A stretch of DNA of 64,000 bases from a virus. This document shows, one piece after another, positions 13,238 to 15,260 of the stretch. Made by a program: the position numbers and the translations under genes. Where the stretch lies: positions 1 to 64,000 of the IMG/VR virus record IMGVR_UViG_3300033066_000693; one strand, written 5' to 3'. The notes beneath the pieces are model-generated. The model made no database searches and was not told the origin of the DNA. It worked only from the letters and a program-made list of their open reading frames with translations. The first letter of the stretch is position 1. Every line of letters begins with the position of its first letter.

Positions 13238-13504
13238 ATGATTAAAGCTCCTTGGACAGACGAGCAGGTAAAAAATCTGAACGACTGGCAAACTGCTGGC
13301 ATTGTTCATCCATTTACCTGCGGTGGAAAGAGAGACGGCAAAGACTGCCGAGCAGACTTGGTAGCCACCAAGGACGGTTGGGTTTGTCCAGAGAAGTGCG
13401 GCTATACTCAGGACTGGGCGCATGCAATGATGGCAAAGGAAAGCGTCAAGGAAGATCCAATCTTCAAGAAGTTCGACAAGTTCATGAATAAAGATGGGAC
13501 ATGA
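13238..13504 (+). CDS. hypothetical small Cys-containing protein
   Basis: internal ATG with RBS; stop overlaps ATG 13501 (ATGA). Confidence 0.35.
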   Translation: MIKAPWTDEQVKNLNDWQTAGIVHPFTCGGKRDGKDCRADLVATKDGWVCPEKCGYTQDWAHAMMAKESVKEDPIFKKFDKFMNKDGT

Positions 13505-13625
13505 CGCAGCAAAACTTCTTTCTCGCGACGAGTTTAGAACTCAAGTTTTCCTGCGCGATAATCACAAGTGCGTTATCTGCGGCAAAGAAGCAGTAGACGC
13601 TGTTAGTCGATATAAAATAACATAA
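13503..13625 (+). pseudogene. truncated, diverged 5' duplicate of the HNH/RNA-ligase gene start (KLLSRDEFRTQVFLRDNHKCVICGK)
   Basis: about 70% aa identity to residues 5-31 of the 14394 ORF with many synonymous differences; ATG 13501 is out of frame by one nt. Confidence 0.45.
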
Positions 13626-13678
13626 CCAAATAAAGGATATTCTTAGCAAACTCCGAAAATAGAGTAGGAGGATTGCTA

Positions 13679-14419
13679 ATGTCAAAATTAAAAGCAGAAG
13701 ATTATCGAGATATTCACCTCAAATGGATTTCTGGGGAAAGAGTAATTACTCTAAGTGAAAAATATGGAGTAAGCGGAGATACTATCATAAGAATAGCAAA
13801 ATCTTATGGTATAGAAAATAATCTATCAATTAGAAGAGAAAGACCACCACTTCCATGCCGAAATGATATTACCGGGAAAAAGTTTGGACATCTTGAAGTT
13901 ATTAAGATGATTCACTCAGGAGTAAAAAGAACTTCTTGGAAAGCTTTATGTAAATGCCATCTCTGCGGTAATGAAACATTTTCTTGCTGTCCTAAGTATC
14001 TTAGACAAAGAATGAATCAAACTTGCGGATGTTCCACTTGGGAGCGAAAAAAAGGGAAAGACAGTCCATTTTTTAAGGGATTTCAAGGGATAACTGGTTC
14101 TTTTTGGCACCAAATAGAAAAGGGAGCAAAAACCAGAGGATTTGAATTCAAAGTTTCTATTCAACATGCATGGTCGCTTTTCCAACAACAAAGTGGAAAA
14201 TGCAAACTGAGTGGTATAGAATTGAGTATTGGTCAATCAAACTATGATGAAAGAACAGCCTCATTTGACAGAATAGATTCTTCTGTAGGATACATAGAAG
14301 GTAATGTTCAATGGGTTCATAAAGACATCAACAAAATGAAACTACATCATTCAGAAAAGTATTTTGTTGAACTTTGTCAAAAAGTCGCTAGTCATGCAGC
14401 ATCAAAAACTACTAACTAG
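13679..14419 (+). CDS. free-standing HNH homing endonuclease (phage HNH_3 type)
   Basis: C-terminal ASFDRIDSSVGYIEGNVQWVHKDINKMK; AT-rich relative to flanks; RBS AGGAGG. Confidence 0.7.
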   Translation: MSKLKAEDYRDIHLKWISGERVITLSEKYGVSGDTIIRIAKSYGIENNLSIRRERPPLPCRNDITGKKFGHLEVIKMIHSGVKRTSWKALCKCHLCGNETFSCCPKYLRQRMNQTCGCSTWERKKGKDSPFFKGFQGITGSFWHQIEKGAKTRGFEFKVSIQHAWSLFQQQSGKCKLSGIELSIGQSNYDERTASFDRIDSSVGYIEGNVQWVHKDINKMKLHHSEKYFVELCQKVASHAASKTTN

Positions 14420-15260
14420 AGATCAATTCAAGAATGATTGTCTCAAACGAGATAATCATCGCTGTGTAATTTGCAAAAATGACAAAGATATTGTTGTTCA
14501 TCATATTCTTGAACGAAGGTTGTTCCCAGACAGCGGCTATTACATCAACAATGGCTCTAGCCTTTGTTCGGTTTGTCATTACAAAGCTGAGACGACAGAG
14601 ATCTCTGTTGAACAGATTAGAGCCGCCTGCAAGATTGAGGAGACAGACAAGATACTCCCTCCTCAACTCTATGACGACCAGCAATACGATAAATGGGGCA
14701 ATCCCATTCTCCCGAATAAGACTAGACTTCGGGGCGAGCTTTTTGACGATCCTTCTGTTCAGAAGGTTCTAGGCGAGGGGAATGCGCTAAACCTGTTCAC
14801 GAAGTATGTCAAGTATCCGAGAACTTGGCATTTGCCGTGGTCGCCGGGAATAACGAAGGACGACAGGGTTATTCCGTCATGCGATCAGTTTGTAGGGAAG
14901 AACATCGTTGTAACCGTCAAGATGGACGGAGAGAATTGTCTGGATGGGGAAACGCTAATAACTACCAGAGATGGGCCAGTTTCTATCAAGGAACTTTGCC
15001 ATAGAGATGGCGTATTTGAGGTTCTGTCGTTCAACCATGAAACAGGTCAACAGGAATGGAAGAACGTTGAAGCAAAACGGATTCTTTCGCCAAGCGAAGG
15101 CTGGTACGAGATTGAATTAGAAAATGGACAGTCGATTCGGTTGACCGGAGAGCATAGAATTTGGTGCGAGAATCTGAGTTGCTATCGCATGGTCAAAGAC
15201 CTTGACGGTAGCGAAGAACTACGGATGGAAATTTTGCCCGAAAAGACAGAAAGGCGGTAA
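14394..15260 (+). CDS. RNA ligase N-extein (HNH-like CxxC/HH Zn motif, KYPRTWHL, motif I KMDGEN) fused to split-intein N-fragment (IntN, 14937-15257)
   Basis: intein block A CLDGETLITT directly after KMDGEN; block B TGEHRIW; ORF ends about 107 aa into the intein. Confidence 0.6.
   Translation: MQHQKLLTRDQFKNDCLKRDNHRCVICKNDKDIVVHHILERRLFPDSGYYINNGSSLCSVCHYKAETTEISVEQIRAACKIEETDKILPPQLYDDQQYDKWGNPILPNKTRLRGELFDDPSVQKVLGEGNALNLFTKYVKYPRTWHLPWSPGITKDDRVIPSCDQFVGKNIVVTVKMDGENCLDGETLITTRDGPVSIKELCHRDGVFEVLSFNHETGQQEWKNVEAKRILSPSEGWYEIELENGQSIRLTGEHRIWCENLSCYRMVKDLDGSEELRMEILPEKTERR

Follow-up and report, generated by a model that had tools for sequence, protein, structure and literature searches.

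Mobile open reading frames (ORFs) of fungal mitochondria are known to create 'gene hybrids', in which an ORF encoding a LAGLIDADG or GIY-YIG protein brings along a C-terminal gene segment of foreign origin while the native C-terminus is retained further downstream; in this system the endonuclease was shown biochemically to drive mobility (PMC3630166). For instance, reverse-transcription PCR in Glomus showed that the gene hybrid is expressed and the remnant is not. The literature on homing endonuclease genes (HEGs) of T4-like phages covers intergenic HEGs as well as HEGs that split genes into two functional polypeptides, and the string 'duplicat' is absent from the text of the review concerned (PMC2988022). 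Examples of split genes are Aeh1 nrdA with mobE, T4 gene 39/60 with mobA and phage 25 gene 43 with a seg gene (PMC2988022, PMC3045599). Duplication comes up in a survey of ICP1-like phage HEGs solely as an event inside the HEGs themselves (PMC10448857), and 'fractured genes' are split inteins separated by a free-standing Vsr-like HEG, with a list of host enzymes that does not include an RNA ligase (PMC2677866). Full-text literature searches found no phage HEG carrying a replacement gene terminus, an absence from the searched library that is not proof of novelty. Here, we describe a candidate for such an element in the HNH/RNA-ligase gene of a viral DNA stretch of 64,000 nucleotides (IMG/VR record IMGVR_UViG_3300033066_000693, positions 1 to 64,000; hereafter the window).

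We consider it probable that the segment 13602-14498 is a mobile HEG cassette lodged inside the coding sequence of the ligase gene, to which it has brought a foreign set of first 35 codons together with their start codon. This level of confidence applies to the reading as a whole, in which the activity and target of the enzyme, the route of repair, the role of a leader hairpin and the immunity of the cassette to cleavage are all inferred.

A cassette between two gene starts

The window resembles part of a large phage genome, with six tRNA genes and nearly all long ORFs on the + strand, as are all the features of this locus. An 88-amino-acid gene (13238-13504) adjoins from upstream a 43-amino-acid ORF (13494-13625), whose ATG at 13494 overlaps the end of that gene by 11 nt and which translates as MGHDAAKLLSRDEFRTQVFLRDNHKCVICGKEAVDAVSRYKIT. 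Its first 36 codons, MGHDAAKLLSRDEFRTQVFLRDNHKCVICGKEAVDA, are the resident 5' end of the ligase gene (13494-13601), the last two being GAC GCT (13596-13601); its last seven codons (VSRYKIT) and its TAA (13623-13625) belong to the cassette. The 897-nt cassette (13602-14498), as delimited by G+C change points, lineage alignments and in-silico deletion, consists of a leader (13602-13678) that holds the stop codon of this remnant ORF and a hairpin, a HEG for a protein of 246 amino acids (13679-14419), and a surrogate 5' end of the ligase gene (14394-14498) of 35 codons, MQHQKLLTRDQFKNDCLKRDNHRCVICKNDKDIVV, which shares 26 nt with the 3' end of the HEG and continues in frame into the resident gene body. 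The restarted ligase ORF (14394-15260, 288 amino acids) begins with MQHQKLLTRDQFKNDCLKRDNHRCVICKNDKDIVVHHI, enters the resident gene body (14499-14936) at the His-His codons CAT CAT ATT (CAT CAT at 14499-14504), reaches ligase motif I (KMDGEN) and runs past it into an N-intein, to 15260. The cassette splits the conserved ...DA|HH... motif precisely after the Ala codon and before the first His codon, and the resident gene start (13494-13601) is severed by it and left as part of the 43-amino-acid ORF. Pfam identifies an HNH motif and an N-terminal intein fragment (Intein_splicing) in the 288-amino-acid ORF, the remaining RNA ligase (PF09414) being found behind a C-terminal intein fragment, at 17019-17633.

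This layout revises an earlier, sequence-only reading of the locus in several respects. That reading had rightly noticed an AT-rich endonuclease ORF between two copies of the gene start and overlapping the restart, as well as an upstream frame that stops and a gene that restarts at 14394. It had, however, let the upstream frame begin at 13503 and taken ATG 13501, now out of frame, for the ancestral start; ATG 13501 is in a different frame from the remnant, which has its in-frame ATG at 13494 and is an intact ORF. Likewise, the insert is not 13626-14393, as had been thought, and includes the first 35 codons of the restarted gene.

The two gene starts are homologous. In a pairwise BLASTP comparison 14 of 23 residues are identical (E = 6e-10), and tblastn of the gene against the whole window recovers the upstream copy (E = 6e-6). 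Nucleotide identity between them is 59%, or 65/78/35% by codon position, and different codons are used at 10 of the 14 conserved residues, which agrees with the earlier observation that the copies are alike in protein and differ mostly at third codon positions. To place the two copies within their family, N-terminal homologues of the ligase gene were collected (n = 340), and the copies were scored against 107 of them. The remnant (...KLLSRDEFRTQVFLRDNHKCVICGKEAVDA) fits the family consensus, LL(S/T)RDxFRxxVFxRDxHKCVICGxxAxDAHHIxERRLF, as far as the residue preceding HH, where the agreement stops. The expressed N-terminus (...FKNDCLKRDNHRCVICKNDKDIVVHHI) is of a minority type (NxCLKRDN...IVVHH), also present in P0005, P0077 and P0007, and has one codon more than the resident start between CxxC and HH. 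The remnant outscores the current N-terminus against 102 of the 107 homologues, and the best relatives of the gene body, P0002 and P0003, match the remnant at 20/29 to 20/30 residues and the current N-terminus at 12/22 to 12/23. The upstream fragment is thus the resident start; the downstream copy is foreign and comes from a different clade of the family. The divergence between the two is old divergence between homologues and not the synonymous recoding that had been proposed. Because the remnant fits the family, the current N-terminus is of a minority type and the low-G+C block described below spans the restart, the present ligase gene is a chimera of a foreign start and a resident body.

Surrogates of different cassette variants differ by codon position at 6/4/14 and 6/2/12 sites, a third-position bias that fits translated coding sequence and indicates purifying selection. 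Separately, a 50-nt island within the remnant (13512-13561) is 98% identical between the window and two related loci considered below, L070 and L071, the rest of the remnant and the gene body being 60-80% identical; the island overlaps a promoter-like TTTAGA-18 nt-GATAAT (13533-13562) and might stem from a recent exchange or mark a conserved signal. Stand-alone proteins of ~135 amino acids (P0241-P0360) also have the N-terminal HNH domain of the ligase, some of them annotated 'HNH endonuclease' in bacteria such as Roseibium and Leisingera. One further homologue, P0001, had been a candidate for a variant with a different 5' end and was set aside, as its first 90 nt are unrelated GC-rich sequence and the contig is probably chimeric.

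Base composition sets the cassette apart from its surroundings. It is the lowest-G+C stretch of ~900 nt in the 64 kb, and it includes the first ~100 nt of the restarted gene. A two-change-point maximum-likelihood fit places a low-G+C block at 13603-14514 (0.337 versus 0.473 in the flanks), with support ranges of 13558-13618 and 14491-14589 for its ends. G+C stays at the genome level up to ~13602, is low in the surrogate as in the HEG, and is back at the genome level in the gene body.

The ORF at 13679-14419 is AT-rich and has a GGAGG 7 nt before its ATG. It lies outside any intron or intein, stop codons preceding an ORF that has its own ribosome-binding site and ATG. Its product matches PHROG endonuclease/HNH families (E = 6e-19 to 1e-9), and an AlphaFold model (predicted local distance difference test score, pLDDT, 91.7) predicts an N-terminal helix-turn-helix, a central Cys cluster and a C-terminal HNH-like beta-beta-alpha-metal domain; a sequence search against the PDB gave nothing meaningful. 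The motif ASxDRIDxxxGYxxxNxQWVHKxxNxxK is invariant in 36 homologues. These features point to a free-standing homing endonuclease gene of the HNH superfamily, whose product is presumably active.

Other endonucleases were encountered along the way. The second-lowest-G+C stretch of the window (38947-39588) encodes a 213-amino-acid paralogue of the nuclease domain of the HEG (29% identity; ...ASLDRKDSSRGYTKDNVVW...), which has no Pfam match and is probably another free-standing endonuclease. In L051 (1-1000), a ligase gene of the same minority N-terminal type (NNCLKRDNFSCVICKSTKNIVVHHI) is immediately preceded by an ORF for a different endonuclease, which overlaps its start. This ORF was rejected as a homologue of the window HEG, since it matches a separate family (phrog_314 'homing endonuclease'); the arrangement suggests either that HEGs of more than one family are drawn to this site or that one HEG has taken the place of another.

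Within the leader, a hairpin at 13644-13678 pairs TAGCAA/CTCC with GGAG/TTGCTA and covers the GGAGG (13667-13671) up to the start codon of the HEG. It is present in both the minimum-free-energy and the centroid fold (z = -1.96), and the 3' half of the leader is near-invariant across three cassette variants, a lone C-to-T change retaining a G-U pair. Hairpin-covered ribosome-binding sites are typical of phage HEGs, where they restrain translation, and the predicted structure may likewise act in translational control of this HEG. Scans for sigma-70 promoters and terminators gave counts near the shuffled expectation.

Recurrence and uninterrupted relatives

The arrangement is found in other phage lineages. 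Each of the four closest HEG homologues looked up (84, 74, 58 and 55% identical) is followed directly by an RNA-ligase gene. In L068-L070 (P0122, 84%) and L071-L075 (P0123, 74%) the order is that of the window: an unrelated gene comes first, then a remnant ORF that ends in AVDA and a handful of cassette codons; a ~75-nt leader precedes the HEG, which the restart overlaps. The restart of these loci reads MQRQK(L/F)LTR..FRNDCLKRDGHRCVIC(K/Q)NDKD(IV/LS)VHHILERRLF, and their RNA-ligase gene is intein-free. Intact remnant ORFs, each ending a few codons into the cassette, are present in L068/L070, L071/L073-L075 and L072, and the genes upstream of the remnant start are unrelated between lineages. 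The remaining two loci, L076 and L078 (58 and 55%), encode ligase N-termini of the form ...LSVHH or ...IHVHH; L076 has no remnant and L078 at most a decayed one.

Comparison of these loci separates the cassette from its flanks. L071 and L072 are 100% identical over the equivalent of window positions 13596-14506, whereas their remnants are 65-77% and the sequences just right of the cassette 72-82% identical. Between L070 and L071 the pattern is reversed: the flanks are 92-100% and the cassettes 70-85% identical, the two loci being near-identical outside 13601-14494. By these opposite patterns, the cassette is a discrete unit with a history uncoupled from that of its flanks.

Its insertion point is equally well defined. 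The junction GACGC(T/C)|CA(T/C)CATAT is common to all four cassette-bearing lineages, and in-silico deletion of the cassette restores the in-frame family consensus (...AVDAHHILERRLF...) in 4/4 of them. In the window, the left junction reads GACGCT|GTTAGTCG, and the two halves of the proposed target site are GCAGTAGACGCT (13590-13601) and CATCATATTCTTGAACG (14499-14515). The reconstructed empty site is GACGCY|CAYCAYAT; its window version, ...AAAGAAGCAGTAGACGCT|CATCATATTCTTGAACGAAGG..., is contained in GTAGACGCTCATCATATTC.

Compared with the other three, the remnant of L072 has a ratio of nonsynonymous to synonymous substitutions (dN/dS) of 0.16-0.18 at a synonymous divergence (dS) > 1. These remnants thus diverged while still coding, which argues for separate insertions at the same codon boundary and against one ancient insertion. 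As far as can be judged from the sequences compared, the cassette is a recurrent composite mobile element, a HEG plus a replacement 5' end, that has entered the same codon boundary in several lineages. The sequence-only reading had seen in the locus a footprint of intronless homing; a HEG cassette did enter the 5' end of the gene and leave a diverged duplicate, but it is a recurrent element rather than a one-off event.

The window locus itself is represented many times. The arrangement is identical in at least 10 independently assembled JGI and Logan contigs. The HEG protein of the window is encoded identically in 12 contigs, all of which show the window arrangement where their flanks reach, except that the head of L060 differs; one contig with the identical protein is 257,887 bp long. 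Positions 1-30 of L060 (Logan SRR23702541), TTATATTGATCCTTGTTCTATATTAAAAAG, are unrelated to the window, and the cassette follows from window position 13608, whereas L048, from the same sample, ends inside the remnant at ~13570. Either the cassette has a second genomic context, represented by the head of L060, or this head, of k-1 length, is an artefact of the assembly graph.

Other relatives lack the cassette. L050, a 212-kb contig with conserved synteny (a DUF3228 gene, a split ligase with the same intein and a DUF7487 ORF), has no HEG, and its gene is uninterrupted at the cassette site (protein ...QDAHHIMERKLF / ...GEPAQDAHHIMERKLF; junction GACGCTCATCACATC), as are those of L052-L054. In cultured jumbo phages the ligase gene is one uninterrupted piece in 17 records at >= 80% coverage, including Salicola SCTP-2, Ralstonia RsoM2USA, Caulobacter CcrSC and relatives, and Acinetobacter ME3. 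The cassette is therefore polymorphic among related genomes, being present in the window lineage, L068-L075 and L078 and absent from L050, L052 and the cultured records. Two independent HNH-type genes with no insertion polymorphism had been named as the outcome that would speak against an insertion, and related genomes show the polymorphism instead.

A profile of the four reconstructed empty N-termini, run against 5.8 billion proteins, returned no near-identical uninterrupted allele, the top matches being the stand-alone HNH proteins of ~135 amino acids. Blastn of 12700-18000 against 50,697 phage records yielded just four short, irrelevant matches. In IMG/VR, the spliced ligase found relatives at 50-51% identity at best, and the HEG found 43 loci at <= 54% identity (<= 51% bar one 35-residue fragment), none adjoining a ligase gene. 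An exact-pattern scan of JGI metagenome contigs for the left end of the cassette had no match in that collection, which is without this phage. A metagenome scan with a HEG profile found relatives at <= 52% identity only, and these served for the screen of flank duplications described below.

A proposed homing route and its rivals

How might such a cassette spread? In the scheme that we favor, the endonuclease would be translated from a ribosome-binding site partly hidden by the leader hairpin and would cut cassette-free alleles of a co-infecting phage at or near GACGCY|CAYCAYAT, presumably between the Asp-Ala and His-His codons of the conserved HNH motif. The break would be repaired from the cassette-bearing genome, with the remnant as the left homology arm and the gene body as the right. 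The 5' end of the recipient would thereby turn into a new remnant and its gene body would be read from the imported start, a means of keeping ligase function without RNA or protein splicing. The upstream neighbor differs in every lineage, and a remnant that serves as an arm could free homing from dependence on the neighboring gene. The nearest mismatches between L071 and L072, 7-8 nt outside each junction, suggest that the broken ends would be used with little degradation and would anneal at the short conserved motif sequence.

The scheme also places a demand on the surrogate, which must be diverged, because a target site would otherwise arise again where it joins the gene body and because similar direct repeats would recombine and delete the HEG. 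In the window this joint reads GATATTGTTGTT|CATCATATT (beginning CATCAT), compared with GCAGTAGACGCT|CATCAT for the empty site, and the left half-site is matched at 4/12 positions, so that the diverged start plausibly confers self-immunity to cleavage. The first cassette-plus-remnant likely originated from an intergenic HEG upstream of a naturally resistant allele, the state seen in L076, by one illegitimate capture. A single-event illegitimate left-hand join as the general explanation was dropped, as the same nucleotide-exact junction occurs in other lineages.

Several observations weigh against this account. The same mismatches 7-8 nt from the junctions mean that flanking markers were not co-converted between L071 and L072, which is unusual for homing by break repair and calls for very short homology at the break; in the window, a short right-hand co-conversion tract up to ~14590 would be possible within the change-point range. 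A near-identical empty-site allele was not found for any cassette-bearing lineage, and the window gene shares no more than 62% protein identity with any uninterrupted relative recovered. Between the window and L070/L071, the dN/dS of the remnants is 0.55-0.89, which does not support independent insertion for that pair, and the L072-type locus is known from one assembled contig. As for the enzyme, the HEG protein has no Pfam match at E <= 10 apart from a spurious LysM match, so that the 'HNH_3-type' label (PF13392) given to it earlier is unsupported; its best PDB fold matches, although HNH nucleases (PacI, Gme HNH, Cas9 HNH), are weak (E = 0.05-0.2); and 36 of 36 homologues have Asp-Arg where canonical HNH has Asp-His. 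Finally, no obvious Shine-Dalgarno sequence precedes ATG 14394.

Some of these points are shared by the most serious alternative, which we nevertheless consider unlikely: that an intergenic HEG beside a resistant ligase allele was captured illegitimately once, long ago, and was inherited vertically thereafter. Identical cassettes in diverged flanks would then result from later gene conversion between cassettes and not from invasion of empty sites. The simple state that this history starts from, a HEG upstream of a ligase gene without a remnant, is seen in L076; it is also consistent with the missing empty-site allele and with the dN/dS between the window and L070/L071, which is compatible with relaxed constraint after a shared insertion. 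It is less easily reconciled with a remnant in L072 that diverged as coding sequence (dN/dS ~0.17), with remnants that are all intact ORFs and closer to the family consensus than the expressed surrogate, and with a junction that is nucleotide-identical in lineages with unrelated upstream genes.

The intact remnants raise another question, namely whether the gene functions in pieces, the 43-amino-acid peptide and the downstream protein both being required and assembling as with mobE in Aeh1 nrdA. There are documented phage genes that a HEG has divided into two functional polypeptides (PMC2988022, PMC3045599), and the remnant is kept as an ORF in four lineages with its start coupled to the upstream gene. 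The downstream protein, however, already has a full N-terminal domain homologous to the remnant (CxxC...HH), which makes the latter redundant, and L076 has both HEG and ligase without it, leaving this explanation very improbable.

Slightly less probable still is a self-splicing intron, of group I or similar, that carries the HEG, with the upstream fragment as true exon 1 and an incidental restart. An intron would account for exact boundaries whose removal gives a perfect consensus ORF in four lineages, for flanks without co-conversion and for a 5' flank that ends in T in 3/4 lineages. In group I introns the 5' exon closes with U and the intron itself with G. Here the insert ends in T rather than G, and the 5' flank of L070 ends in C. 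Moreover, no Rfam intron match was obtained at E <= 1 over 7 kb or at E <= 10 over 1.1 kb, the 77 + 79 nt outside the HEG ORF are too short for a ribozyme core, and the 3' part of the insert is homologous to exon 1, in frame, equipped with a start codon and substituted mainly at third positions, as expected of selected coding sequence. An intein was excluded by the TAA at 13623-13625 and further stop codons in the leader; the real split intein of the gene sits elsewhere. The homologous stretch is short (23-30 residues), yet chance similarity or an assembly artefact creating a spurious duplicated start has a negligible probability given the pairwise E value, the matches of the remnant to homologues at other loci (65-69% identity, E ~1e-9) and the recurrence of the arrangement across independently assembled contigs and three other lineages.

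Neighboring elements and known systems

The ligase gene harbors a second selfish element. A split intein follows motif I (KMDGEN|C), with its N-intein at 14937-15260, its C-intein at 17019-17123 and the C-extein at 17124-17633, and has the sequence features CLDGETL..., a TGEH block and ...VLVHN|C. Two ORFs lie between its halves, one for an unknown 227-amino-acid protein (15263-15946) and one for a DUF7487/Vsr-like protein (15968-17014) that matches phrog_3339 'homing endonuclease'. The intein and the 5' cassette are independent, L050 having the intein only and L068-L078 the cassette only. Between the window and L050, the intein halves and the Vsr-like HEG are 88-97% identical and the exteins 57-62%, for which reason the split-intein unit also looks horizontally mobile. 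Many N-terminal homologues of the ligase end in an N-intein fragment.

Several other features of the window and its relatives deserve mention. About 1.2 kb upstream of the cassette locus, a TnpB-like ORF (11144-12322) has OrfB_IS605, Cas12f1-like TNB and HTH_OrfB_IS605 domains, and a sub-threshold RAGATH-18 match (12288-12354; 25.6 bits versus a gathering score of 44.9) overlaps its 3' end. As no 392-amino-acid gene is listed at this position in closely related contigs, it may be a strain-specific insertion. The tRNA genes comprise one with the amber-reading anticodon CTA (24364-24438; labeled Pyl by ARAGORN), a cluster of four tRNA-Glu (47905-48244) and a tRNA-Arg (51054-51127). The stop codon of the HEG ORF is TAG, and read-through would add just five codons before a TGA. 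In the identical strain contigs, two downstream genes are unusual for a phage: one with glutamine-synthetase domains PF03951/PF00120 (L047 8070-9116, corresponding to 18283-19329 of the window) and one for a protein of ~895 amino acids with the major-vault-protein shoulder domain PF11978 (L047 10066-, corresponding to 20626-23325).

Does the arrangement extend beyond the ligase gene? A screen of 137 loci with members of the HEG family compared the 450 nt upstream of each HEG with the sequence downstream and recovered all ligase-cassette loci as positive controls. At L023 (3766-5111), a 30-amino-acid remnant, MTKEQIETSLDAMLENPKAKTFLNHLVRAF*, is followed by a HEG and an overlapping restart, MEEIKRKKIYDTLESMLENPKAKTFLNHIVRSYMPATN..., of a 201-amino-acid gene (E = 1e-11), which is again a 5' end. 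At L116 (1961-3116), a second copy of the upstream gene's C-terminus follows immediately behind the HEG (E = 3e-9). L124/L127 (L127 2245-3213), where two small zinc-ribbon ORFs flank a related HEG (E = 6e-5), is ambiguous. The HEG-family members of L023, L116 and L127 are distant (37-42% identical). In three runs of a shuffled-pair control with ~107 pairs each, 1, 0 and 0 matches fell below 1e-4, and the lone match (E = 2e-39) is assumed to join related loci. Chances seem evenly balanced that phage HEGs have a third, undescribed mode of living in coding genes, next to introns/inteins and intergenic sites, as portable cassettes with a replacement gene terminus, and that members of this family use it at further genes and at both gene ends (L023, L116).

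If so, a displaced terminus would act as a ready-made homology arm and allow the element to enter the same precise codon boundary in widely divergent phages while hardly co-converting the flanks. A spare gene start suggests how a selfish nuclease can enter the codons of a catalytic motif without splicing machinery, which would widen the known modes of insertion into coding sequence and connect phages with a phenomenon whose descriptions have so far come from fungal mitochondria. In genome annotation, such cassettes may betray themselves by short 'orphan' ORFs upstream of HEGs and by chimeric N-termini in the gene that follows, and gene trees built from the chimeric genes will mix two histories. 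The conserved junction GACGCY|CAYCAYAT offers a target that can be tested directly with the HNH-like family, so far uncharacterised and unusual in its Asp-Arg motif, and the ligase locus, with its cassette and independently mobile split intein, is a natural place to study two selfish elements that share one gene.

Set against known phage systems, the cassette combines features that are otherwise found apart. Like the seg and mob genes of T4, which spread by intronless homing, its HEG is free-standing, sits beside its presumed target gene and is patchy among related phages, and in both cases host-gene expression signals embedded in the element favor its retention (PMC2988022). T4-type elements lie between genes, with recombination in the flanking genes and co-conversion of markers, whereas the cassette interrupts a reading frame for which it brings a substitute coding segment; a remnant stays behind, and co-conversion is not detectable. 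With the gene-splitting HEGs it shares a position in a conserved, critical region and a gene function that is retained without splicing; there, however, both halves are needed and assemble, and here the upstream piece is made redundant by the imported duplicate. The split intein with its Vsr-like HEG in the same gene resembles the 'fractured genes' (PMC2677866); it occupies a separate site and relies on protein trans-splicing.

The mitochondrial gene hybrids come closest. In both systems a gene terminus of foreign origin moves together with an endonuclease ORF and is in phase with the resident gene, and the displaced native terminus stays adjacent and resembles close relatives more than the imported one does. 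The imported mitochondrial terminus is ~60-80% identical in DNA yet similar in protein, and the phage case is alike. The two differ in that the phage cassette replaces the 5' end and supplies a new start codon, with the endonuclease ORF first, whereas in mitochondria the 3' end is replaced and the ORF comes after; L116 may be a phage example of this 3'-end form. Furthermore, the phage nuclease is of the HNH superfamily and neither LAGLIDADG nor GIY-YIG, its host is a large phage, and its insertion at a codon pair of a catalytic motif has nucleotide-exact boundaries in several independent lineages. Taken together, these features best fit a terminal-replacement homing cassette in a 5'-end variant borne by a phage, its anatomy and mobility well supported and its enzymology inferred.

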